From Schmidtea polychroa (Eukaryota): 64,000 bases of DNA. Below, in pieces: positions 2,516-53,999 of this stretch. The notes under the pieces are model-generated. The model made no database searches, was not told the DNA's origin, and was given only the letters and a program-made list of their open reading frames with translations. Both the position numbers and the translations under genes were made by a program. Positions within the stretch are counted from its first letter, which is position 1. Every line of letters starts with the position of its first letter. The stretch spans positions 5,210,001-5,274,000 of the forward strand of contig CM097885.1 in the NCBI GenBank assembly GCA_044892525.1, given 5' to 3'.

Positions 2516-3329
2516 TGATGATAATATTTTGGAAACTTTTAAAACAATTAAAGTAAAGCTAAATTCAGCGTAATTTATTTACATGAAAATAAATTAAACA
2601 ATTTGAATTTATCATATAAATTAATATATTATATAAACAAATAGAATTTCAACTTTTAATGCGTAATTTTATATATTAGCGTTTGTTATGGCTTTCAATA
2701 ATTAAAAATTTTAAAGATATTAAAGATTTAAATTTCCTAATACGATTTAGTTCATTTTGAAAAATTTATACGGGATAGTTTATAATATATTGCTTTAAAC
2801 AGCCCCATCTCTAACTCTAGTGTTTGGTTACGAGTAAAGAAAATTACATACCAGTACTCATTAATATCCTAGCTACCCTGATGCTGTTCATATGTCGCCA
2901 TCTTCCTCTTCGCAACTCCGCACATTTATAGATTATCACTAAATGCCAATCGCAAACGACGTTGATACTGCCCTTTATGGTAAGTTGTTAGAAAGATTTG
3001 AGCGCAGTTTAAAGGACTGTTGATACTCATACGTGCTCCCAGGTTAACGGGCTTGTTATATAAGGTGTAATACTTTACTTTCTATTGTTACTTTCGTAAT
3101 TATGCTGAGTTTACCTAAAACGGTATTGTTTAATTTTCATTGACGATTATGGAACCAAAGGTGATATTTGTTTTTGCATACGATCAGCAATACCAGGATA
3201 TATTGTCAAACAACTTGATAAAACTGTATTGCTATGTAAATATTTATGAATATCAAGTTGTTATAAGTGGCATCACAAATACAAACAGTTTTCTTTCCCA
3301 AGAAATATTATTAAAACAAAGCTTCTGGA

Positions 3330-3730
3330 CATCAGAATCTTTCAAACCCAATGATAAAAACTTGATCATCGGGAGTTCATATTTCTTTTCAAGCACCGAA
3401 GAATAAAGCATTTTGCATTTCTTTGTTCAAAATCAAGGGTAATGTAATACAAATTTTCTACAATATCTCGAGTAATTTCTCTTTCCGAAGTAATTGTAAA
3501 ACAGCATCCTGTCAGTCATAATTTTTATTAGATAATCAATTAGGTCTCTTTCCCCTAAATCAGTTCTAAAAATAGCATGAGATAGAGCGTATCCTATATA
3601 AATTGACATTGTATATGGCACATCATCTCCGGAATCTTTTATAGGCTGAGCTTGATCATCAATTTCATTGTCAACACTGACGAAACAGTATCCATTATCA
3701 ATAACCAATGCGACATTCTTATTCATCCAC
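3330..3730 (-). pseudogene. degenerate actin pseudogene with internal deletion and frameshifts
   Basis: [50 protein letters not shown], then [21 protein letters not shown] in another frame; matches actin [39 protein letters not shown]. Confidence 0.85.
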
Positions 3731-6700
3731 GTTGTAACAAAATATTTAAAAGTAAAAGAAAAGAAATCCATTAATCAAAACTATTATTTTAAGTCTCCAA
3801 ATTCGACTTTTTCAAACCAAATGCAACAAAATACAAAAAATTTCAGAAACGATTGATCCAAAATATAAAGTCCAATTAGAAAACCTCTAACATTTGAAAC
3901 ATAAAAAATAGTTTTTATCGCGTCTGTGTGCCATTCAAACAGAGAAACCGAAAAAAATAATCAAATGCAGAGACACGATACATAAATTAACCATATTACT
4001 AAATTATCCACTCATTTGGTTTTTGAAACCTTGACTTTTTAAAATAAGATTCAACTTCAGAAAACGAAATATCGTAATCCAAATATACGAGATCTGTAGT
4101 TTTTTTTGTCAGTCTTCAATATGATTTAGGGTTAAGTGAAGTAAGAAAAAGATAATCAAAACCATAAATTTGAAAATTTCTATAATTTTGAAAACGCTTA
4201 TCTATATTTACAAAAAGAATAAATTATTGATTTACGCCGGAAATTTATACGTTAATTTAATTCAAATAATTCTCACCGATCCCTTCAAAATCTATTCACC
4301 GTCTCATATACAAAGATTACTTCAAGGACGAACTTTGCGTTTTCATTTCTAATATTATTAAATAATCATCACAAAGTTCGTTCTAATAACCAGGGAATCT
4401 TAAAATGTTCATGAAATGTCTTTTAGAAAGCTGCTATATGTTAGTGTTATCAAAATGAAATCTTTATATCGCTTAAGTCAAGAGCAATTGAAGAAAATTG
4501 CCTTAAATTTAAAATTTTAAAATCGAATTTCCATCGACGAATACTAAATTTTGTTTTCTTCTGTTTGAACGTAAAATGCTTTGCTTTTAGTTTGTCATAT
4601 ATGTTAATATATTTTATAAATATTTTCTTTGCACTAGGTAACAAAATTTGTGTTGTCATATTTTTCCTTTTAACTCTTTGCTACAAGAACAAATGAGATA
4701 AGTATGTGAATTTCTTAATTAAAACAAAATAATTATAGTACAATAGTCATGAAGGCGTTTAGGAAGGTGTCGATTTAACATCTACAATTGCCCCTAACAC
4801 ATTTAAAAATAAAATGGCACACCCCTAAGGGACCAACACAATGAATAATATTATAAATAAAATAACGTAAGGAAAGCCGAAAAGTGGATTGAGATAGCAC
4901 TCTGGAACTTTGAAAAAAGAAAAAAATTGAGAATTGAAAAGTGAATAAAAGAAATCAGACAAGAAAGCAGAATAAATAACATTGCTGATTAATAATAGCA
5001 AAATGGAAATCCAAATTATAAAGAAATAAGAAAAATTCATATATTGACAGCCCGAAAGAGATATTAGGAATACAATAAGAGGGAACGACGAAAAAGGGCA
5101 AAACAAGTCAGGTCTTGCTAAATGTCAGTGATAACACAAAAGCTAAACAAATTATGGAAGCAGGAATGAAAAAAATGAATTATCACAAATATCAGACTAT
5201 AAAAGCAAATGGTCGAGGAAAATTAATGAAATTAGAAAGAGAAAAATTTGGAAGTAAACAGAGCGATAAAATTGAGTCCAATAAGAAAACTACGCCTGAG
5301 TAAAGCAAATACGACGGATTACGTATGTTTTTTTCCTTGAAAAAATTTATAAAACCTAGAAAAAATATATAATATATATAATATCTCAAAACATTAGATT
5401 TTTGTCTTTTTGATGACTCCCTGAAATATAGAAGTACTATACAAACCATCATACGAACACAACGCCGACATATTATGCATTTCATAGTAACAATATTTTA
5501 CAAGAACAATCTCAAAATGAAGTTCGACCAGCCATAAAATGATGCTGGCAGAAAATATTCGACAGTATGCGTTTCATACGGTAAAATATATGCCCTAGAC
5601 ACACGGAGACAATTTGTGTAATCTGTTCGGAAGATCAAAATGTAGAGTGATTTTTTATATTTTTTATGTATAGTTATAAGTATCTTGATGTTTAAAGGTA
5701 AAGAATGCTTGGAATTTGAAATTTCTTGTTATTTTGTAAGAGTTTAAATTTTGTTATTTGATAAATTTAAACTCGAATTGCTAAAAATGACGAAATAATA
5801 ATTATGGTATGAAAATTATTTTTTTCCCAAATGTTTTGGCGCCTCCTCTAGCCATAGGCTGCACCTCCCCGGTTGGAAACCACTGAATTATAATCGATAA
5901 TAATCCGAGAACCCCTAACATTTTGCACATTATATATATATATGCAATAAATCAATGAAATTATTAAGAGACTTACTTTGCATGGATTATCGATCCTGAA
6001 ATAAATATAAATAAAATCAATAAAAATAGAAAATAAACAAGGAATTTAATTTCATTGTAGCAACACGAAATCAATATTCCAATGATGCAATGTGCAACCT
6101 GAAAAATATCAATATTTCCTCAACAGAATAATCAATATGTATTTCATTAAAATCAAAAAACTGCAAGGATAAATAAGACTAACACATCTGAGCAAGCGAA
6201 TTCTAACTCTATGAAGATTTATTATTGGAATTGTTACTGATAAATAAGCCATTGACGAGACTGCTGGCTGAGTATAGCAATGACTTGGAACCTTTTTTAT
6301 TGCTTTTATCGACAATTGCTGACATTTCTTGATCATAAAGCCGATTGAAATGAAAATAAAGTTTCTCTAGCTTTTCTATTCGCTGACAAATCTTTTGTTG
6401 GAGAATATCTCTGACAATTAGCCAATGGTAAATGCAAGCAATCAGATAAAAGGAATTGAAAATCATATATACCCATTTGCACAATATTAATCAAAATTTT
6501 GGTCTTTTATTTAACACGACATTTCAGAACAGGCTTTTTCAAAGCGATTGTTGATCAATTTTAACATTCATTATATCCAAGTATTTAATCGAATTTATTA
6601 TTTTTATTGATTATAAAATAAATTTTGAAAATCTATAAATTTTAAATCAAAACAATAATTTTCAATCAATTTTATTAATTCAATAATTTTGATTTATGAT

Positions 6701-9864: not shown

Positions 9865-11425
9865 AATTTTATAACACACACCTTTAATAATTTTCTTTTT
9901 GATATATGAAAATTAAAACCGTACATTCAAATTACGGAAAGCTAGAATGTTTATTCAAAATATTGATCAGGCAGATAAAGGCTGCTATTTCCAATTAAAT
10001 TGGAATCTTGAATGCCCTGACCCAGGGGCTCATCAATACCTTCATGTATGTCAATATAGCCCGGTTTTGAAAATCCAGAAATCATCGTAGCATGAGACAG
10101 CTGCTCCCAGGCAGAGTCAACCCAATCAATCAAAACATCTCTTTGGGTAACTTTTGCTTTGAATATGCCTTCATTTGCTTCCATATCCGTTCTTAATTTT
10201 TCAGACCACATTGTTCTTAGGTGCGATTTAAACGGTTTATTCCAGCTAACATGTGCAGGCTGGCAAACTGATGTAAAACCAGATGGAATCTTCATCAATG
10301 TAATATTAAGGATATTTGCAGCGGCTAAAACATCGCTTGTCCAGTGTGCTGTAAAGTCATCCAATAATAAAATCTTTGGCTTCTCCACATTGTCGGAAAA
10401 ATTATGATAAAGCCAGATAACCATCATATCGCTTGTAAACCAGCCATTTTGGTTGCAATATATTTGAGTCGTGCTGGTTTTCCAGACACAACTACCAAAT
10501 CCATGTTGATTAATTCTATCCTGCAACGATGATGCCTCCACAACTGATTGTTTACCCTTAAATATTACAAAAGGTGGTTTTTTCTGTCCCTTAGAAGATC
10601 CCAGCAATAATACTGATATCCTCTCTTTTTCTTTCCCAGCTGTTCGTATGAATATTGTCTTGGAACCTATTTTATCTAAGGTTTTTCCCGGGATTGTTTC
10701 ATAATTAACAGCCGTTTGGTCGGCATTCCAAACACAATCTACATTTAATTCAATCATTTTTTGTCGGACGTCTAATGCAAACTGAGTGGCTACCGGATTT
10801 GGAAGGACTATGGATGTTTGTCCTTGATGAGATTTGGCTCTGAGTGACAAGCCATATCTTTTCTTAAAGGTTTTTAGCCACCCAGTGCTTGCTAAGAAAT
10901 TATTAACATCGGTTTGTCTGCACGATAGGCGAGCTTTAGTACGAAGTATACTGTCGGTTACGGGGGCACCATTTTGGCGCAGGGTTCGGACCCAGAAAAT
11001 AAGTTCGTCTTCGACTTCAGATGAAAGACTCGAGGAAGTTCCTAGTGGTCGGATCTTTTTCAATTTCTTGACCCTATTCATATTCCCAAGTTTTGTTATT
11101 CGGTCTTTATTTTTTCTCCATTGATATATTAACTGTCTTTTGGCTTCACGAGCTGGCGATGATGACTTTAGATCAGGCCAAAATTTGGTAACTGTCTGTG
11201 ACGCACCATTTACATCATAGAAATCCAACACATTCTTTTTAAATTGTATCGTATATGCAGTTCTCATATGTGTTACTTCTACTGTGTGGAATCCTTTTGT
11301 AGAAATGCGCCCAGATGCATTCTTCTTACCCACCATGTTGGGTTTAAAAGTTGAGTGTTTTTAAAAATTAAAAAAGTATTGAACGATAATATTAAAGCCT
11401 GTGTGTTATAAGAAAATAAATACGG
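9865..11425 (-). mobile_element. pogo/Tc2-like DNA transposon embedded in (TAT)n
   Basis: Inverted ends TTATAACACACA..TTTAAT (9869-9888) and ATTAAAG..TGTGTGTTATAA (11391-11411). Right end TACGG followed by TA. Left tip is eroded into the microsatellite. Confidence 0.85.
9951..11336 (-). CDS. pogo-family transposase (CENP-B-type HTH + DDE_1), third catalytic Asp replaced by His
   Basis: 461-aa open frame: VEDELIFWV..FLASTGWLKTFKKRYGLSLR, WNADQT, LLLDDFTAH, CQPAHVSWNKPFK. Confidence 0.93.
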   Translation of the reverse strand: MVGKKNASGRISTKGFHTVEVTHMRTAYTIQFKKNVLDFYDVNGASQTVTKFWPDLKSSSPAREAKRQLIYQWRKNKDRITKLGNMNRVKKLKKIRPLGTSSSLSSEVEDELIFWVRTLRQNGAPVTDSILRTKARLSCRQTDVNNFLASTGWLKTFKKRYGLSLRAKSHQGQTSIVLPNPVATQFALDVRQKMIELNVDCVWNADQTAVNYETIPGKTLDKIGSKTIFIRTAGKEKERISVLLLGSSKGQKKPPFVIFKGKQSVVEASSLQDRINQHGFGSCVWKTSTTQIYCNQNGWFTSDMMVIWLYHNFSDNVEKPKILLLDDFTAHWTSDVLAAANILNITLMKIPSGFTSVCQPAHVSWNKPFKSHLRTMWSEKLRTDMEANEGIFKAKVTQRDVLIDWVDSAWEQLSHATMISGFSKPGYIDIHEGIDEPLGQGIQDSNLIGNSSLYLPDQYFE

Positions 11426-12960
<1,535 letters not shown>

Positions 12961-13663: not shown

Positions 13664-14279
13664 CAGGTACGCAGCCAGGATTTAAGGGCCGTTCATTTTC
13701 AATATATAATACATGAGAACATCAAAACATTAAGGGGGTTAAATTCATTGTAATTACTACAAAGTTATTCGTTTCCAGTTAATAATTTAGATAACTTCAC
13801 TCATTAACATTTGGCAATTGTCATAATAAATTTAATGACTTTTACGGTTTTTTTGGGGAGGCTGAAGCCAGAACGCATGATTGGAAGCATTTAGATCCAG
13901 ATCCATGGATTATCAAGGATATAAGTTATCAAATGCGAACGAATTTTGAATTGAGCAACAGACTGCAAAGAAACCGATTCTCGTTTATCGTACCTACGTC
14001 AGAATACCGATGCACGTGCTACGCGATGGGGATTCCCCATATTCCGAACGGCTTTAACACAGAACACAACACACGCTACTATTCTGCATTTCTTTTTTCA
14101 AATACAAAATCACATTTCTCGAGAGAAATAGAGCTAGTGGCATAGAGAACATGAACAAAGAAACGAAAGACGAATACGTGCTTTTTCCTACACAGTTTTT
14201 TTAATACACATATTTATATCTATTAAAACATTTTTGTATTTTCATTTGCCATGCCTGCCATACCCTAGTTACGCCTCTG
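13664..14279. mobile_element. non-autonomous hAT-like element
   Basis: Imperfect TIRs CAGGTACGCAGCCAGG and CCCTAGTTACGCCTCTG. Confidence 0.45.
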
Positions 14280-14409
14280 GATATAACATGAGACAGGGTG
14301 TTTTAGGGTAACTTTAGGAAACTTCAGCATCATCATAATATCGTATTTAATAAATGTATATAAATTGTGATAAACTTAACGATTATATTCACAAATAAAT
14401 ATGTAGATA

Positions 14410-15450
14410 AATTGGATTGAATTATATGATAAATGGATTGAATTATATGATAAATGGATTGAATTATATGACAAATGGATTAAATTATATGACAAATGGA
14501 TTAAATTATATGATAAATGGATTAAATTATATGATAAAGGGATTGCATTATATGATAAATGGATTAAATTATATGATAAATGGATTAGATTATATGATAA
14601 CTGGATTAGATTATATGATAAATGGATTAAATTATATGACAAATGGATTGAATTATATGATAAAGGGATTGCATTATATGACAAATGGATTGAATTATAT
14701 GATAAATGGATTAAATTATATGATAAAGGGATTGCATTATATGACAAATGGATTGAATTATATGATAAATGGATTAAATTATATGATAAAGGGATTGCAT
14801 TATATGATAAATGGATTAAATTATATGACAAATGGATTGAATTATATGATAAATGGATTAAATTATATGATAAATGGATTAAATTATATGATAAATGGAT
14901 TAAATTATATGATAACTGGATTAGATTATATGATAAATGGATTAAATTATATGACAAATGGATTGAATTATATGATAAAGGGATTGCATTATATGACAAA
15001 TGGATTGAATTATATGATAAATGGATTAAATTATATGATAAAGGGATTGCATTATATGACAAATGGATTGAATTATATGATAAATGGATTAAATTATATG
15101 ATAAAGGGATTGCATTATATGATAAAGGGATTGCATTATATGATAAAGGGATTGCATTATATGATAAATGGATTAAATTATATGATAAATGGATTAAATT
15201 ATAAGACAAATGGATTAAATTATATGACAAATGGATTGAATTATATGATAAATGGATTAAATTATATGATAAATGGATTAAATTATATGATAAATGGATT
15301 AAATTATATGATAAAGGGATTGCATTATATGATAAATGGATTAAATTATATGATAAATGGATTAAATTATATGATAAAGGGATTGCATTATATGACAAAT
15401 GGATTGAATTATATGATAAATGGATTAAATTTTATGATAAATGGATATAA
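14410..15450. repeat. 21-bp minisatellite, about 49 copies
   Basis: Consensus TTATATGATAAATGGATTAAA with a few recurring variants (GACA, AGGGATTGCA, ACTGGATTAGA). Confidence 0.98.
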
Positions 15451-19075: not shown

Positions 19076-19174
<99 letters not shown>

Positions 19175-19254
19175 TTAAAAATAAATAATAATAAATTAAA
19201 ATGAATATTAATCAAAATAAATAATAAAAATTATAATAATAAATAACAATAAAG

Positions 19255-19287
<33 letters not shown>

Positions 19288-19458
19288 TAAAAAATACTAA
19301 AAATATTAATATTAATAAAAATAACTAATAATAAATAACAATAAATATTATTAATAATAATAAATAATAATAATAATAGTATTATTAATAATAATAAATA
19401 ATAAAAAATATTAATTAAAATAATAATTAATACAATTATAAATAAATTTTATTAATAA

Positions 19459-19490
<32 letters not shown>

Positions 19491-19890
19491 TAATAATAAA
19501 TAATAATAAAAAATATTAATAAAAATAATAATTAATACAATAATTATAAATAAATTTTATTAATAAAATAATAATAATAAATATTAAAATGAACTAAAAT
19601 TAAATAAAAATAAATATTATTAATAATAATAATAAATATTACAAATAATTAATAATAAATTAAATATTAATAAAAATAATAATTAATACAAAAATTTAAA
19701 AAAAAATTTTTAATAAAATAATAAATATTAAAAATAATTAATAATAAATAAAAATAAATAATAACAATAATAATAATAAATAATAAAAATTATTAATAAT
19801 AATAATAAATATTAAAAATAAATAATAATAAATTAAAATGAATATTAATCAAAATAAATAATAAAAATTATAATAATAAATAACAATAAA

Positions 19891-19957
<67 letters not shown>

Positions 19958-20128
19958 TAAAAAATACTAAAAATATTAATATTAATAAAAATAACTAATA
20001 ATAAATAACAATAAATATTATTAATAATAATAAATAATAATAATAATAGTATTATTAATAATAATAAATAATAAAAAATATTAATTAAAATAATAATTAA
20101 TACAATTATAAATAAATTTTATTAATAA

Positions 20129-20163
<35 letters not shown>

Positions 20164-22070
20164 TAATAATAAATAATAATAAAAAATATTAATAAAAATA
20201 ATAATTAATACAATAATTATAAATAAATTTTATTAATAAAATAATAATAATAAATATTAAAATGAACTAAAATTAAATAAAAATAAATATTATTAATAAT
20301 AATAATAAATATTACAAATAATTAATAATAAATAAAATATTAATAAAAATAATAATTAATACAAAAATTTTAAAAAAAATTTTTAATAAAATAATAAATA
20401 TTAAAAATAATTAATAATAAATAAAAATAAATAATAACAATAATAATAATAAATAATAAAAATTATTAATAATAATAATAAATATTAAAAATAAATAATA
20501 ATAAATTAAAATGAATATTAATCAAAATAAATAATAAAAATTATAATAATAAATAACAATAAATAATAATAATAAAAAAAAATAATAATAATAATAATAA
20601 TAAATAATAAAAAAAACTAAAAATATTAATATTAATAAAAATAATTAAAAATATTAATAAAAATAACTAATAATAAATAACAATAAATATTATTAATAAT
20701 AATAAATAATAATAATAATAGTATTATTAATAATAATAAATAATAAAAAATATTAATTAAAATAATAATTAATACAATTATAAATAAATTTTATTAATAA
20801 AATAATAATAATAATAATAATAATAAATAATAATAAAAAATATTAATAAAAATAATAATTAATACAATAATTATAAATAAATCTTATTAATAAAATAATA
20901 ATAATAAATATTACAAATAATTAATAATAAATAAAATATTAATAAAAATAATAATTAATACAAAAATTTTAAAAAAAATTTTTAATAAAATAATAAATAT
21001 TAAAAATAATTAATAATAAATAAAAATAAATAATAACAATAATAATAATAAATAATAAAAATTAATAATAATAATAATAAATATTAAAAATAAATAATAA
21101 TAAATTAAAATGAATATTAATCAAAATAAATAATAAAAATTATAATAATAAATAACAATAAATAATAATAATAAAAAATAATAATAATAATAATAATAAA
21201 TAATAAAAAAAACTAAAAATATTAATATTAATAAAAATAATTAAAAATATTAATAAAAATAACTAATAATAAATAACAATAAATATTATTAATAATAATA
21301 AATAATAATAATAATAGTATTATTAATAATAATAAATAATAAAAAATATTAATTAAAATAATAATTAATACAATTATAAATAAATTTTATTAATAAAATA
21401 ATAATAATAATAATAATAAATAATAATAAAAAATATTAATAAAAATAATAATTAATACAATAATTATAAATAAATTTTATTAATAAAATAATAAATATTA
21501 CAAATAATTAATAATAAATAAAATATTAATAAAAATAATAATTAATACAAAAATTTTAAAAAAAATTTTTAATAAAATAATAATAAATATTAAAAATAAT
21601 TAATAATAAATAAAAATAAATAATAACAATAATAATAATAAATAATAAAAATTATTAATAAAAATAATAAATATTAAAAATAAATAATAATAAATAATAA
21701 AAATATTAATAAAAATTATAATAATAAATAACAATAAACATTAATAAAAATTATAATTAACACAATAATAATATATAAATTTTATAAATAAAATAAGAAT
21801 AATAAATATTAAAAATAACTAATAATAAATAACAATAAATATTACTCAAAATAAATAATAACAATAATAATAATAAATAATAAAAATTATTAATAAAAAT
21901 TATAATTAATACAATAATTATTGTATTAAAATAATAATAATAAATATTAAAAATAATTAATAATAAATAATAAAAAATATTAATAAAAATAATAATAAAA
22001 AATAAAACTAAATAATAAAAATTATAATAATAAATAACAATTGTAAATAATAATTATAAAATAATAGTAA
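19050..22070. repeat. nearly pure A/T (AAT-derived) satellite with ~600-670 bp higher-order units
   Basis: Marker AAATGAATATTAATCAAAAT recurs near 19199, 19836, 20509 and 21108. Confidence 0.93.
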
Positions 22071-31514: not shown

Positions 31515-32837
31515 GAGTAAAGGGTATTTCGTAATCGATATTTATCTGACGATCATCAGGTCAATGGGGGAGGGAGGGGTGTTACTAAAAATAAGGCTTA
31601 TTATTCCTCCAGATTTTATTGGATTTGTAGGGTTTTTGATACTAAACCTAGTAACATAATTGGGCATAGGATTATTAATTACAATACTAGATAATAAAAT
31701 TTGAATGAACATACTAAGTGTGATGTCATTAATACAATAAATCTTGACAATAATAAAATATAAATAAACATAATAATCCAATGAGACTTTTATTTGGTAA
31801 AGCAAATTGTAATTGTAGAGTTACGGAAATAGTAGACTTCCCCCTAATACGTATGATAACTGGAATAATCCAGAATACTCTTGTAAAGGGTGACCGGTTA
31901 ATGAACCTACCAGTCGTCATTCTAGTGATGATATAGTGATTAATGATGCGTAAATGTTGCAGTAATAATACTAGAAACGGTTATTCAAAATCCTTTTTAG
32001 TAATTATGGTGAAAGAGACTGTTGACAAATTTATTAAAAATCCTAAGGATCCATGTTTGAGAAAATCTGGTTGTGATCTTGTTGAGATGTGTGAGTCTGA
32101 TGAGTTAAAATCTGGGTGTGATTTTGTTGAAGTGTGTGAGTCTGATGAGTTAAATAAATTAAATAGTGTGAGCAAGGATGATGAGCCTAAATTTGTGCTA
32201 GTATTGCGTACTCAGAAGGTTTTAAGGATTTTTAAGTGAAGATAAGAAAGCAGTTAGGGAATTTAAACTATAGGATAATGTCAACTTTATGGAAAGTACG
32301 CAATATGTTTATTAATAAGTCAAAAACTCCGGTTGAATTGTGTTCCGATCTCGTTTATCAGTTTACATGTAATGGGTGTAATGCCACATACATTGGAGAG
32401 GCTTCCCGTCATCTCTGTATTCGAGCTCGAGAACATTGTAGACCGAAGGCTTTGACCCATATTGGTGAGCACAATAAGGGCTGTAAGATTAAAATAGGTA
32501 TGTCTGATTTTAAAATTTTAATAAAAAATTTCGATAATTATTGGGAACGTGTGATTTGTGAGGCGTTGTTGATAAAATCATTGAATCCAAAAATTAATGT
32601 GCAGAATGCAGTAAATACTTGTGTGTTGAGTGTTTTTAAATAAGTTTTTAAATAGGTTTTTTATATTGTATGTATTGATTGTTGTATTAAATTAAATAAT
32701 TACTAAAAATTTTTTAAATTATTAAATTAAATTTTAAATGTTTAAATTTAAAAAAAAAATAATATATTTTTTTTATAAAATAAAAATTTTTTTTATATAT
32801 AATTAATAAATTTGTTTCAAATCCTTAATTTACATAG

Positions 32838-33945: not shown

Positions 33946-33975
33946 GAACCATTAATCTCTAGGCAATCCGATATC

Positions 33976-34016
33976 TCACCTGATGATGACAGGAAAACTG
34001 TCGAAATTAATCGTGA
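33976..34016 (+). ncRNA. minimal type I hammerhead ribozyme (second copy)
   Basis: tcac-CTGATGA-t-GACAG gaaaa CTGTC-GAAA-ttaa-TC-gtga. Confidence 0.85.
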
Positions 34017-34443
34017 AAAGAATGTTTGATTGGCGTTATCTTATAATTAAATCATTGCCATGTATGTTTAACTATTTAAACTATTTTAACTATTTAAAGA
34101 AATTAAAAAAATATAATAAATTAAAAAGTAATAATTAGAATAATATAGAAAAATTTAAAAAAATAGGATTTGAAAATCAAAATTGACACATTTATTGAAA
34201 TATTTAAATAACATATATAAGTGGTTATTGGAGGCTTTATTTAGAATATTTTCAAATATTTTATTACGCTTCTAGAAGCTAATTATAGAAGCTGTATAAA
34301 AAAAATTTAAAAATTTTTAGTTCGTGTCATTTCGAATTTATAAATGTAATTAAAAATTTTAAAAGTTTTTAGTAAAACAAATGAGAATTAAGAGAAAGGA
34401 AATAAAAGAAAGATTGAAAGGTATTTTGGGAAGAACATTGCTA

Positions 34444-46560: not shown

Positions 46561-47991
46561 ATGTTTGCAAGCGTATGGGAAATGATGAAGAGGAATAAAT
46601 TTGAATTTGATAATGAAATCAGCAGTGAATTGATGTGCAGAATTTGCAAATGTTTAATGATAAAAGCTTGCCATGCTCCTTGCGGGTGTCGCTTTTGCTC
46701 TGATTGCATTGAGCATTATTTGGTTGGAAAAGATAAATTCTGTCCAGGAGCAGCAAAACATTGTGGAAAAAAAATGATAAATTTCAATAAGGATGTTTCT
46801 GAAGATCATGCGATCAATCTAAGGATTTCAGAAGTAATAGTGAAATGCCCAATGAAAAATTGTGAATTCAAAGATGAATTAGAGGTGATGGAGAGCCACA
46901 TGAGAGCATGCAACAAGCAGCCAATCAGGTGCCCGTTCAATAGGATTGGATGCGAAATGAATGATGTAGAGAAGGACGAAATGAAAGTCCATCTTAATGA
47001 GAACAATGATGGCCATAGCAAATTACTGATTGATCAAATCAGCAATTTGTGCAATGAGATGCAGGCAATGAGTGAGGAGAATGCCAAATTGCGGAAGGAA
47101 ATTATCAATATCAATGTAAAATTTTATTTATAATTAATTTAATTGATATTTGTGATTGTAGGTGAAATTGTGCAATATTGAAAGGAAAGAGGCGGAGAAC
47201 AGAGCAGAAATAGAAGAACTGAATGAGGAAATGGTGGCAGTGAAGAATGAGAATCGCTCATTGAGAATGGAGATGGAGACAAATATTGGATCGATCAATC
47301 TAGTTTGATTATTGATTTGATTTGTTATTGAATTTTTATTGATGCAAAGCAGATCAGACAGCAAATTGAGGTGATTGAATCAAATTGTCAACAGCAAATT
47401 GATGAGATGAAAGAGAATTGCGAGCAGCGGCTGCAACTGGAGAATGAAAAGGTGATTTATTGATTTATTGAAATACTTGAATTTGAGATTCAGTTGCAGC
47501 TTGAAATGGCGAAATGCGCCAATGAAATTCGGCTGATTGAAATAAAATTAGGAAATGAAGATTTTATAAATAACGGATTTTTTGAATGGGAAATTGATAA
47601 ATTATCACAACAAGAGAGAAATGAATGGATTTACAGCAAGGTATTTTATTCCGGGACAATCGGTTACAAAATGTGCTTGGCGGTGAAGTTTTGGCCAGGA
47701 GATGTAATTGGTGTTTGTTTTCAATTGGTGCGCGGAGAATTCGATGCTAAATTAGCATGGCCATTCAAATTTTGTGTGACAATTAATTTGATTGATCCAG
47801 GAAATGGAAACTGTTTTTTCAGTAGATTTAAAAAATATTCAGATAGTCCTAATGACCCCCGATGGAGTAAACCATCAAATGACAGAAATGATCCAATTTG
47901 CATTTATGATGATATCTCAATCAATTCAGCTGCTGCCAAAAATGATAAGTTGGTGCTCAAATGTAAAATTGAAAAGTTTAGAGACATTTAA
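46561..47991 (+). CDS. TRAF-family protein (RING, TRAF zinc finger, coiled coil, MATH); exons 46561-47115, 47162-47302, 47353-47451, 47494-47991
   Basis: CRIC..CGCRFCSDC..CP, CPMKNC..HMRAC, CPFNRIGC, FYSGTIGYKMCL, GEFDAKLAWPF. Three 42-50 nt phase-0 GT-AG introns. Start may instead be 46582. Confidence 0.93.
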
Positions 47992-49837: not shown

Positions 49838-50207
49838 AAGGGACAAAGGCGAATTAATATTATATTGTAATATATTCTATGTAATATACATTTTTAATAA
49901 TTAATAATAAATTTGTTGATTATCTTAAAATATTTTCTATTTTTCGGTGTCAACTTTTAACATTGCTCAATGAATTACAATAATTCTGCCCCCCCCCCCT
50001 CAAGCTGAAATACTGTCTAAGTTCCTGCTTCCAGTTATTTTTATCAGAAAAGGATTTAAAGACTTTCAGGGAATTTTTACAAGTTTTGATAATATGTTTG
50101 ATAATAGTTTTTAATGATATTGAGGAATTTTGATTCATTATTTATCTGTAAATTAAATGTTATAATAAAATAGATATTAACTTTATTCATGTCTTTCAAT
50201 ATTTTAG

Positions 50208-52300
50208 TGTTGGGCTAAATCTCGAAGATTTAAATGTTGATTAAAGTTGAATGAGAGAGGGAACCACATAAAAATAAAATAAATAAGTAAAGGTAACCCT
50301 AACCAAAATCTAAGCAACATAACGATAAACCAAAGAAATCGAAATAAATAATAAAATAATAAAAATCACTAGAAGAAGGAATAATTATAGGAAATAAGGT
50401 ACCCGTAATTAGCGACCCGTAACAACATAGGAAATCACAGGGAACACTCTGACCGCATGGTACCATCGATTCTAACTATACCCAAAATTTCACTGTAAAT
50501 CTTAATAATAATATGATCAACTTTCTGTATCTCTTCGGCGCAACAAATTACGCCTCCTAATATCGAGAAAGTAAAATTATAAATTATTAAATGGGTTATT
50601 ATTTGTTTTCCGACTTTATCTATTTTGTCTCGGTCAAATCCCACCCAATCCCTCCTTTATTCAGTCGACAAGGAAAGAAATTACATTATATTACGGAGTT
50701 AAGACGTATCTCATAACCCTAGTACGACTCCTGTATGGGTATAATTGAGGAGCGGAGGAATCACTGAACCAATTCTCAATGAATGAGAATAGATGGGATA
50801 CGGGTGCTAGCAAATGGGTATTTGTAATTTTCCCCCACTAATCCCGATTTGAAATTAATTCCAGACCGATTGTTAGACTACGAGATGTCTGCAGGAAAAC
50901 GCCCAGAATGAATGTGATTTTTGCGTGACGGCTCTATGTAATAGTTCCCTGAGAGATTTGCAACATTTCTTTTCGCTTAAAGCTGAAAAACTACTAACGC
51001 AATTTCATGAATATATCTGACCTCACTCGTATGCCTGAATATTCATTACCGACTGTGATGGGGAATTTTCTTTTATTTGTAGGGATGTCAGTACCCAGCA
51101 CTCCCAGTAAAGAACTCCAACCCTGCTTTTCTTGTGCCGACAAGAATGAGGATATCAGGAAGTTACACGCGTATATCGGGGCTCTCAAAAAACGTATCGA
51201 TACGTATGAAGGCACGTGGTTCTCCCCGTCACCGATGAAGGAAGAGTGGACAAAGATCCTAAGATTGGAGCACTGCCTTCTGGAGGAAAGCAGGTGCCTG
51301 CGGCTGACAATTAAAGCCCAAGGTGTACACGGAGGCCGAAATTCTAAAACGAGTTCGAGAATATCCGATCCGGGATGGAACTAACGTGTTCCCGATTCAT
51401 CACCAAGCCAATGGAGAGTCACTAACATCGACTAGTTGCGCAGGACAGGGGCCTCAACTGCCGCCCCTTCCCGAACCTGTCCTGTCGAGCTCCATGCATA
51501 CTTCCAGCGTTCCACCCATCTATATCCCGAGTGCAACTCTTCCTCTGTCGAATCTGCAATCCACCACTGCGAACACGTCGGCTCCACGAAAGCGAAAACG
51601 GCCAACGCGATCCAAAAAGAATTAGAAGCGCCGAGACGCCATCTCTGTCGACTGCTCAGTCGACCATCAAGGAAATCTCTCAAACTCATTCCCTGCCAAC
51701 GAAGGAGATATTCCGCCTTGTTCCACCAGAGGGGACGAGATTCCTGGAGGATCGCCAACTTTCCGTGGATATCGATGCTATGTTGGCCGAAAGGGAAGTT
51801 TTCCCAGAACCACGATTCACGTTGTAAATACCCAATTTCAGTCAACCATTTGTGAACTCTCGTCCAATTATAATTGTGTTTTCTGTTTAATACATTGAGT
51901 AGGATCGAGTTGAGTGTGTCATTGTTCTAAGTTAATTACAATAAAGTTTTAAGTGTGTTTAATTGAGGCTACGGTTTGATGTAAGTTTGGCGCGCGATTA
52001 CCGAGAGGTGCAATCATTAGCGAGGTCATCCCCTTGGACCAGGGTCGTATCGATGGTATGCTTGAACCAGGGTAGGTCCTTCTACGGTACCGTTGAACCC
52101 GAACGGCGAGTTTACTAAGAGTAGTTCTAAGGTAGGAGCTCACCTGTTGGTAAATTCCGACCTATGTGCGCAGTAGTAACGTGTTACATCACCACGGGCA
52201 CACATAAGGGAGATTAGTTACGTATCATCTTGGACACCCAGGGAACTACATGCTGAGCAGATGGGGATAGATTTACCTTATTTTTTCCGGGTATCCAACA
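50208..52300 (+). mobile_element. 2093-bp LTR-like insertion carrying an internal ORF
   Basis: TGTTGG...CCAACA with perfect 4-bp TSD TTAG; no gag, pol or transposase motifs seen inside. Confidence 0.85.
51085..51827 (+). pseudogene. LTR-borne ORF of unknown family, two frameshifts
   Basis: MSVPSTPSKELQPCFSCADKN..YEGTWFSPSPMKE..EHC../..NVFPIHH..PRKRKRPTRSKK/..VDIDAMLAERE. Confidence 0.75.
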
Positions 52301-53999
52301 TTAGGAATATTATTGTGAGTCATTAAACTTTTTCCGCATTTAGAATGTAATTATCACATGCATGAGAAAATTTATTTTCAGTAATAAATCAACCTAAAAA
52401 TGTAAAAAGAATATTCTCTTCATCGTTTACTTTTCCTCCTCTAAAAGTATTTCTGTTCCTGGATTCTTCTATTTAGAAGTATTTCCACCTTTTGAATAAA
52501 TTTATGTTTAAATGAGTAAAAGTAAAAATAAATGACCAACAACTCCATAATTGAACATAGAAACACAACTAATCATATCAATAGGACAGAAACCTCGGAA
52601 TCTCACTCTATCTCATCCAGTACCCAACACAACGCGTATGATAAAAAATAAATTGTAAAAAAAATGTAATGAGCCTGCTGTACCAAATGGATATTTTGTC
52701 AAACTTCCTCGCTAAAAATGTTTTCTTTTTGATGTCAGAAATTTCGATCGATTTAAAATTTTTATAGGTCATTCGATTAACAAACAGTTCTTCAACAGAA
52801 TTCATGAAACTCCTTCCCAGAAAAAAATCAATAGCGTTAATTTTTATAATTTTTCAAAATTCTTCTAGGCCGGTTTCAAAATTTTATAGCTCATTCGATT
52901 CGCAACAGCTTCTTATCGGTTTTGAATGATAATTTTATAATTCTTAATTTGAAAAATCTTTCTAAAAAGTTAAATAAAAAATATTTCACTTTACAATTTA
53001 ATACATTTAAAACAACAACAATCCACATCCCGACACAATATACCATCCAAACTATTATAAAATATTCAAAACACAAGCGTTCACATTTTGCACATTATTT
53101 TTCAAATCCAATGACATCCGTAACATTGGTGAAATATTACAGAAAATTTGTGAATGGATTTTTAGTGAACAGCTCATATAAAGATCCTATAATGCAAAAA
53201 TAGGTTTATTTAGTACTATGACATTTGGTAAAATGACTACGAGAGATTCATCTAAGCGTATAACTTCTGTAATTTTCGTGCAAATTATAGAAAAGAAAAC
53301 TTATTCATAAAAGTTAAGATTAGAAATTCATTACCAAACAATTTGCTCAACCCTACTCAATCAAATGCACTGTTTGGGAATCTTGTCAACCCAATATCAC
53401 AAATATTGAAAACAGGTGACGTTAGAGCTATCGCGGCTAAAACATTTATTAAGTCATCAACAATTGGACAAATTCAACATCTACTGAGCATACAAAATCT
53501 GTAGATTCCAAACCTCTAATTTCTTATCTTGCCAATTTTTAAAGCTTGGGAAAATGTCTGATGACAATGTGCATATTTCCATTTAATCTCCTGTGTTTTA
53601 AGGAGTGCCATGTATCACAATGTGCATTTCGTATATTTTCCAAAATTCTGTAATGTTTGAAAAGAGCCAGAAAAAGAATAAAGATGGCAAAATTTATTTA
53701 AATATGGTGAATAAAATTTAATTTATTTGTTTCATTATGGATGGGCTTTTCCATAATCGACTGGATCAGGGCTAATTGTTCTAAGTCGGCCAACACTGCA
53801 AGTAAAACATATTATCCTCTAGTACTTTCATCATAATGAGCACAATTTCTTTCTAATTGTAAATCTCTGTGATTATTGCTGGTTAGATAATCCAATGTTC
53901 ATCAAAAATCCTCTATTAAAACTTTGCGTCAGTCGTACTATCTCACCTTTGGTATCAAATAAATTAAAAATTTCAATTGATTCATTGCATGCAATCTTG

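Follow-up and report, generated by a model that had tools for sequence, protein, structure and literature searches.

The stretch of Schmidtea polychroa DNA considered here, the window, comprises 64,000 nucleotides (NCBI GenBank assembly GCA_044892525.1, contig CM097885.1, positions 5,210,001 to 5,274,000 of the forward strand) and contains at positions 50208-52300 a solo long terminal repeat (LTR). It belongs to a diverged short-LTR lineage (2.1 kb vs 4.2 kb) of the Burro/GYPSM1-like giant Ty3/Gypsy elements, which are endogenous-retrovirus-like, and it harbours the decayed copy of an accessory gene located inside the LTR. The locus itself is an ordinary dead solo LTR; the open reading frame (ORF) of the window is a pseudogene, and the gene family is alive elsewhere. 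As a whole, the explanation given here (a solo LTR, a dead copy of a selected LTR-borne gene, and an inferred mode of expression and role) is regarded as probable. The features of the locus are compiled in Table 1.

Table 1 Features of the solo LTR and its flanks (positions in the window; TSD target site duplication)
Feature	Position	Strand	Basis or remark
Left TSD copy, TTAG	50204-50207	.	Matches right copy
Solo LTR, 2,093 bp, of an old Burro-like giant Ty3/Gypsy lineage	50208-52300	+	Ends TGTTGG / CCAACA
Variable 5' part of the LTR, presumed U3	50208-51084	+	A-rich at ~50260-50400; non-conserved CTATGTAATA at 50933-50942
Pyrimidine tract and AG, 3' splice-acceptor-like	51066-51082	+	Ends 2 nt 5' of the ATG at 51085
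Pseudogene of the LTR-borne accessory gene (~253 codons)	51085-51827	+	Codon-level alignment with intact L042, L059 and L048
Likely poly(A) signal and downstream element, R/U5 boundary	51940-51960	+	Motifs: AATAAA at 51940-51945, GU-rich GTGTGTTT at 51953-51960
Best-conserved non-coding LTR block, presumed U5 leader	52024-52262	+	Alignment; donor-like GGTAGGT at 52071-52077
Predicted RNA hairpin, arms 52108-52121 and 52144-52157	52108-52157	+	Compensatory changes between subfamilies
Right TSD copy, TTAG	52301-52304	.	Matches left copy

The terminal motifs (50208-50213 and 52295-52300) and the perfect TTAG duplication, already reported in a preliminary description of the locus, are present as stated. 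In a control, every TGTTGGG of the whole window was paired with every YCCAACA 300-6000 bp downstream; only one of the 13 pairings, that of 50208-52300, possesses a matching 4-bp flank. The A-rich 5' part and the AATAAA of the same description were found as well. Neither a second copy of the unit's family (own-window comparison) nor Burro-like internal DNA was found in the window, and the unit is therefore read as a solo LTR of a diverged short-LTR lineage. The Rfam search of the unit gave no match at an expectation value (E) ≤ 1. The unit's own genome has planarian features, namely an assembly size of 781 Mb, four very large contigs and a guanine plus cytosine (GC) content of about 30 %. A DNA search of it yielded 1,411 candidates, 40 of which were scored and are 68-86 % identical; query positions 1-840 were matched by fewer relatives than positions 840-2093. 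In the closest of these relatives (L002, 86 % identity; C2:100401663-100406606) an LTR start in the same orientation lies 456 bp after the LTR end (L002:3444-3900).

The element to which such LTRs belong is represented by a full-length relative. Two ORF matches 26,406 bp apart proved to lie in 4,241-bp direct repeats which are 99.9 % identical and delimit an element of 30.6 kb in total. The termini of these LTRs are TGTTGGGCTAAG and CCAACA, and a copy of the TSD ATAC lies on either side of the pair. Between them lie gag with CCHC knuckles, a fusion glycoprotein of the Monjiviricetes (rhabdovirus) type and a protease (PR), as well as reverse transcriptase, ribonuclease H and integrase (RT-RNaseH-IN) followed by ankyrin repeats, and RING and RING-MATH/TRAF ORFs; because all these are encoded, the element is classified as Burro/GYPSM1-like. 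Each LTR of the pair contains an identical intact ORF of 253 codons at LTR positions 2946-3704, which is distinct from gag, the latter being located in the internal region. Where a primer-binding site and a polypurine tract would be expected, the sequence TGGGGGCTCAGCC starts 7 nt past the 5' LTR, and the stretch before the 3' LTR is not clearly purine-rich. Furthermore, 11 clusters of same-strand ORF matches are spaced 23-34 kb apart, as expected of LTR pairs, one pair being verified by sequence.

With the young 4,241-bp LTRs the unit of the window shares its first 11 nt (TGTTGGGCTAA) and its last 6 nt (CCAACA). The nucleotide identity between them amounts to 67-76 % and is restricted to the ORF start and the 3' block; 180 nt near the 3' end of the unit are 75.6 % identical to the young LTR. 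At the protein level the ORF of the window (piece P0001) is 78-80 % identical to the ORF of the young LTRs. The preliminary assignment of the unit as an LTR is borne out, as gag-pol is flanked by 99.9 % identical pairs of relatives that have the termini, the ORF and the 3' block in common with it.

Three further observations concern elements of this kind. In L062 (C1:168372001-168382000), which belongs to the full-length element with the 99.9 % identical LTRs, the gag-to-env-like frame contains in-frame stops (TAA at 2536-2538, TAA at 3511-3513 and TGA at 5422-5424), and the protease is in a different frame from gag and the env-like part. Three stops are more than expected from four LTR mismatches; they may reflect read-through or a non-autonomous yet recently copied lineage. 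On the minus strand of C1:145063312-145163763 four intact LTR ORFs follow each other at a spacing of 33.2 kb, each 75 % identical to the query, which looks like a tandem array of elements with shared LTRs. Within the window, positions 46579-46932 (+) give a weak match to the RING part of the RING-MATH ORF (26 % over 129 amino acids (aa), E 2e-7) inside an open frame of 201 aa, which may come from a host gene of the TRAF-like or RING type or be a remnant of an old element.

The window copy of the gene had been described as a frameshifted ORF of about 245 codons. The three-frame pieces with the listed motifs were indeed recovered (51085-51384, 51308-51625 and 51600-51827, containing CFSC, EGTWFSP, FPIHH, RKRKRPTRSKK and DIDAMLA). 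The damage, however, goes beyond frameshifts, and the intact gene has about 253 codons. Besides 17-bp deletions after 51319 and after 51645, the copy shows a 9-bp in-frame deletion after 51276 and a premature TAG at 51623-51625, and its stop is displaced.

The gene is intact in very many LTRs of many subfamilies and is under strong purifying selection. A search of the own genome with the complete 253-aa protein gave at least 6,983 candidate places, and 137 of the 150 scored run end to end without a stop at 74-100 % amino acid identity. When the query was limited to the first 99 residues, 5,231 candidates were obtained; most of the 150 scored are in open frames of about 253 codons, and 103 of them extend over at least 240 aa without a stop (hand count). 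Among 22 ORF-bearing loci nine reached 235 aa, and natural intact copies were used in place of a frameshift-corrected consensus. The ratio of nonsynonymous to synonymous substitution rates (dN/dS) was determined for eight natural full-length copies of different subfamilies, L035 with its frameshifted tail being left out. It is 0.04-0.27 in the 16 of 28 pairs with computable dS; in the remaining 12 pairs dS is saturated and dN is 0.18-0.34. By part of the protein, the median is 0.09 in the N-terminal part (117 columns), 0.32 in the linker and 0.09 in the C-terminal part. These values understate the constraint on active lineages, because mutations after insertion are neutral. A still-intact member, L069, is only 36 % identical to the young copy. 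The preliminary description had made its reading depend on intact copies, on purifying selection and on the lack of a match to gag or a known host protein; intact copies under selection exist, and no curated match was found.

The family also reaches beyond its own genome, as judged from sequence comparison, because remote homologues share its module and a reciprocal search returns to it. A profile search of 1.84 billion protein representatives gave 12 matches with E between 1e-10 and 1e-4; in a pairwise comparison a remote homologue is 35 % identical to the LTR protein over 95 aa (E 1e-15), and the reciprocal search matched 150 places in the planarian genome. Across 20 sequences W45, P48, E71, R73 and Q82 are invariant. 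The module order of the remote proteins is GTWxSPE, RL..R[DE]xLIxE[SN]RxQR, QS, FTDxEL, IPxxH, a linker, an arginine-rich tract and an acidic tail. Their arginine-rich run RRRPNRNRRRRERRR gives in one case a sub-threshold match to Pfam REV (E 0.0013, 19.1 bits vs a cut-off of 22). The 10 remote homologues that were checked are nameless singleton UniParc entries. In 10 of the 12 (P0004-P0015) an unrelated animal-type domain exceeds the Pfam cut-off (SNF transporter, GDC-P, L21, subtilase, CRAL-TRIO, actin, ABC, tyrosine phosphatase, hAT and DAD). Fused as they are to unrelated host domains, the remote homologues are therefore read as probably being chimeric gene models. A repeat-borne ORF with its own acceptor would yield annotation chimeras of precisely this kind, and the chimeric models in other animal genomes give a hint of LTR-borne transcript trapping.

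How the gene might be expressed was deduced from signals in the LTR. A pyrimidine tract ending in YAG 0-2 nt 5' of the ATG is present in 21 of 22 ORF-bearing copies. A pyrimidine tract with AG is also found in the window, where the preliminary description had already placed an acceptor 2 nt before the ATG. The tract also occurs in all 11 rows of the alignment of close relatives and in the 36 %-identical L069; upstream of it the sequence diverges among copies. Beyond the stop codon, a hexamer resembling a polyadenylation signal follows after 112-197 nt in eight of nine copies, and TGTGT or GTGTT lies 13-16 nt past the hexamer in six of nine, the seventh copy (L049) having a GU motif after a variant hexamer outside the list. 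Another 90-145 nt or so further on, eight of nine copies contain the donor-like sequence GGTAAGT, GATAAGT or GGTAGGT. The surrounding block is predicted to fold: for the whole structure 10 covarying pairs were counted against 4.1 ± 1.6 in shuffled alignments, with none of 500 shuffles reaching that number and slid controls giving 1-4, and in helix 5 both sides have changed in five of 13 pairs. The covariation was obtained with seven sequences, and the structure was taken from the same alignment.

On the basis of these motifs an expression model can be put forward tentatively, in which the gene lies in U3 and would be translated from a spliced subgenomic mRNA. R would end at the poly(A) site near 51960, and U5 (~51960-52300) would form a structured leader with the major donor. 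Splicing would link the GTAAGT donor in the U5 of the 5' LTR with the acceptor that abuts the ATG in the 3' LTR, and the poly(A) signal 110-200 nt past the stop would set the 3' end of the mRNA. Flatworms are known to perform spliced-leader trans-splicing, and the spliced leader could be an alternative donor for the same acceptor. In HIV-1 (human immunodeficiency virus 1), binding of U1 suppresses the promoter-proximal poly(A) site; the U5 donor may have the same effect here.

Alternatively, the unit could be a self-contained cassette as originally supposed, in which a promoter inside the LTR drives an LTR-only mRNA ending at AATAAA, each LTR including solo LTRs being an autonomous gene. The whole ORF is situated inside a single LTR with a poly(A) signal 3' of it, and TATAAAT occurs about 45-50 nt 5' of the ATG in six of 22 copies (L035, L037, L048, L049, L050 and L056), where it would fit an LTR-internal promoter. 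However, neither the youngest subfamily (L061) nor the lineage of the window has this motif. The TATA-like motif noted earlier near 50934 exists as CTATGTAATA but is not conserved as TATA-like in 10 relatives, which leaves an upstream promoter unsupported. The feature conserved at the ATG is the pyrimidine tract with AG, which argues for splicing and against a self-contained unit of promoter, ORF and poly(A) signal. The window copy, moreover, is broken, and the former idea of a working expression cassette scattered by solo LTRs does not hold for it. The cassette is accordingly held to be improbable.

Some points nevertheless speak against the spliced-mRNA model. The TATAAAT of the six copies is one; another is that the conservation of the donor motif is weak evidence in itself, because the entire block around it is conserved. 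Where transcription would start, how the RNA would be spliced and polyadenylated, and that it would be translated are all read from motifs, as are the boundaries of U3, R and U5. Four sequencing runs, none of them on record as RNA, consist of short repeat contigs, one with a loose end resembling a transposase adapter; they contain no junction of the U5 block with the start of the ORF, and the peaks of depth that they show at the ORF start and at the 3' block are uninterpretable.

The gene product belongs to an unrecognised family, as first proposed. Pfam contains no family matching the 253-aa protein at E ≤ 0.01, the three pieces of the window giving a sub-threshold Trimer_CC only; the PDB profile search returned nothing but a match of the basic tract to mS38 (E 0.0019). 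A word-based search of 5.8 billion protein clusters gave 586 candidates, none significant. In the ESM Atlas the best score was 0.85 without a family, and a bZIP cluster at 0.79 is at chance level. Two AlphaFold predictions (8 and 20 sequences) concur in a hairpin of helices 15-41 and 48-98 and a basic helix 182-213 with a predicted local distance difference test (pLDDT) of about 90, a disordered region at about 102-174 and a short helix 242-247 with low pLDDT. The product is thus predicted to have a long hairpin of antiparallel helices (residues ~15-100), which a disordered linker separates from a basic helix (~176-213), and to end in a short tail of acidic and hydrophobic residues (LPVDIDEMLAEGE, or IDFFDLDEILFE in L069).

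As this is the layout of small viral nuclear regulators, the protein may be an oligomeric nuclear regulator of the element and would act as a transcriptional transactivator or an RNA-export factor; the preliminary description had proposed a nuclear transactivator or anti-silencing factor. Three more specific assignments were rejected: a zinc finger (the cysteines of CFSC as well as C64 and C74 are not conserved in the remote homologues, and no profile matches), a bZIP protein (no profile match for the planarian proteins) and membership of the HIV Rev family PF00424 (no REV match for the planarian proteins). Against the regulator stand the generic helical hairpins among the structural neighbours (best Foldseek E for the hairpin protein 0.32), VIA-align Z values of at most 9.7, below the approximately 13 needed for helical models, and the fact that the function is read from the architecture.

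A fair rival to the regulator is a structural or assembly role, for instance as a budding or trafficking adaptor whose hairpin oligomerises and whose basic helix binds RNA or membrane. PPxY is a retroviral late-domain motif, and PPPY is found in the tails of the remote homologues P0005, P0008 and P0014; the best structural neighbours include ESCRT-III-type hairpins (Z 8.5-8.9), the matches being generic. The planarian proteins, in contrast, have no PPxY, and their tails are acidic, of the DIDEML or FFDLDEIL type. The fold matches remain under the level meaningful for helical proteins, and the gene is separate from gag. On balance the structural role appears unlikely and the nuclear regulator is preferred.

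If the regulator and the expression model are combined, Burro-type flatworm elements would encode in U3 a Tas/Tax- or Rev-like regulator of a new family, with its ATG at an acceptor and its mRNA spliced from the U5 donor or a spliced leader. Because acceptor, ORF and poly(A) signal are all inside the LTR, any intact LTR in a transcribed region, solo LTRs too, could yield the protein or trap host transcripts. This combined picture is possible, and it is more doubtful than the expression model taken by itself.

The assignment of the window unit to LTRs of this element type has weaknesses in its own lineage. In the sample of the old short-LTR lineage, unrelated DNA follows each of the 16 copies whose 3' end could be identified, and among the sampled copies no intact full-length element with LTRs of the ~2.1-kb lineage was found. 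A pattern for the junction with the primer-binding site (LTR end plus TGGGGGCT) gave no match. The old copy L020 is a 2,038-bp solo LTR with the TSD ATAG. Another old copy adjoins a RING1-like ORF which is 49 % identical in amino acids to the first ORF in the interior of the young element; that copy is truncated, and gag-pol is absent from the following 6 kb. The solitary state of the window copy and the missing intact element would suit a unit that is no LTR, either a Ginger-like non-autonomous DNA element or a host gene that was captured and only looks like an LTR. However, relatives that agree with it in termini, ORF and 3' block form the nearly identical repeats of a gag-pol element with a 4-bp TSD, and the RING1-like ORF is typical of the internal 5' end. 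In addition, neither a transposase nor long inverted repeats at the copy ends nor mobilisation independent of reverse transcription was seen, and a non-LTR origin is considered very improbable. Least credible of all is that the frame is conserved as cis-regulatory U3 DNA and not as a coding sequence: U3 regions do carry constrained regulatory DNA, but synonymous sites have reached saturation at a dN of 0.06-0.34, constraint varies with the protein domain (0.09, 0.32, 0.09), stops are missing in 137 of 150 copies, and the homologues are recognisable at the protein level only.

Complete accessory genes in an LTR are known as a kind. The sag gene of mouse mammary tumour virus (MMTV) encodes a superantigen in U3, is present in both LTRs as well as in solo LTRs and is thought to be expressed from a spliced mRNA ending at the LTR poly(A) site. 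Like sag, the planarian ORF is located entirely inside the LTR and 5' of its poly(A) signal (positions 2946-3704 of 4,241 bp in both LTRs). However, the two show no sequence relation (no Pfam family at E ≤ 0.01): Sag is a type II membrane glycoprotein, whereas the prediction for the planarian protein is a helical and basic chain with disordered parts, and the element that encodes it is Gypsy-like and not a betaretrovirus. Complex retroviruses possess 3' regulators such as Tas/Bel1 of foamy viruses, Tax/Rex of human T-cell leukaemia virus (HTLV) and Rev of HIV, and their nef and bel genes overlap U3. By analogy, the planarian protein would share with Tas/Bel1, Tax/Rex and Rev the small size, a putative spliced mRNA, an oligomerisation helix, a basic tract for nuclear localisation or nucleic-acid binding and an acidic or leucine-rich tail. 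It differs from these and from nef in that there is no homology at any curated threshold and that the retroviral genes lie only partly in the LTR. Acidic activation motifs of the VP16 type are DFDLDML-like, and the tails LPVDIDEMLAEGE and IDFFDLDEILFE are similarly short and acidic-hydrophobic with the short AlphaFold helix 242-247; the resemblance is at the level of the motif, in a region of low pLDDT, and the tail of the remote homologues differs.

The element type itself is already known. Burro and GYPSM1 are reportedly treated by Grohme et al. in 2018 and by Jurka in 2007. They are giant Gypsy-like LTR retroelements of dugesiid planarians, and in the parts of the published account used here they resemble the present element in exceeding 30 kb, in a CCHC gag, an in-frame rhabdovirus-like env, PR-RT-RH-IN (RH, ribonuclease H), ankyrin and RING/MATH-TRAF, and in a very high copy number (PMC6431247). 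These parts cover the internal polyprotein and accessory ORFs and, as far as they go, mention no LTR gene (PMC6431247). The window LTR differs further in being shorter (2.1 vs 4.2 kb), older and of a diverged lineage. In the literature on GYPSM1, Burro and ORFs inside LTRs no description of an LTR gene was found, the scope being such (Grohme et al. 2018, supplements and Repbase entries lie outside it) that a prior annotation is possible. What appears to be new is a selected LTR gene of an unrecognised family in a flatworm Gypsy-like element, a gene whose intact copies run into the thousands and which has relatives in other genomes; the gene family is rated as moderately novel.

We know of no account of how transcription, splicing and export of the RNA of a 30-kb retroelement are controlled, and a conserved, selected gene in the LTRs is an obvious candidate for this task. 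For genome annotation it matters that gene models will be contaminated by an ORF that has a strong acceptor before it and a poly(A) signal after it and occurs thousands of times. Burro, according to the parts of a second source used here, belongs to the repeats that are most abundant and most active in planarian genomes, and its RNA rises on knock-down of the nuclear PIWI (PMC8532177).

Other repeats of the window stand apart from the solo LTR. Positions 1-372 and 426-504 recur in direct orientation at 32354-32731 and 33971-34049, respectively, with 84-96 % identity and about 32-33.5 kb apart, the first being cut by the window start; they could be LTRs of another giant element or a segmental duplication. 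The section 20001-22000 is extremely AT-rich (GC 2.4 %) with arrays of the ATT/AAT type, and the arrays at ~11300-12900 and 19100-21600 form long imperfect inverted repeats of each other. At 14263-15171 a 21-bp tandem repeat is present in 50 copies, 62-100 % identical to the reference and most of those listed at about 90 %. Several frames of this array are open on both strands and give ORFs of 265-351 aa.

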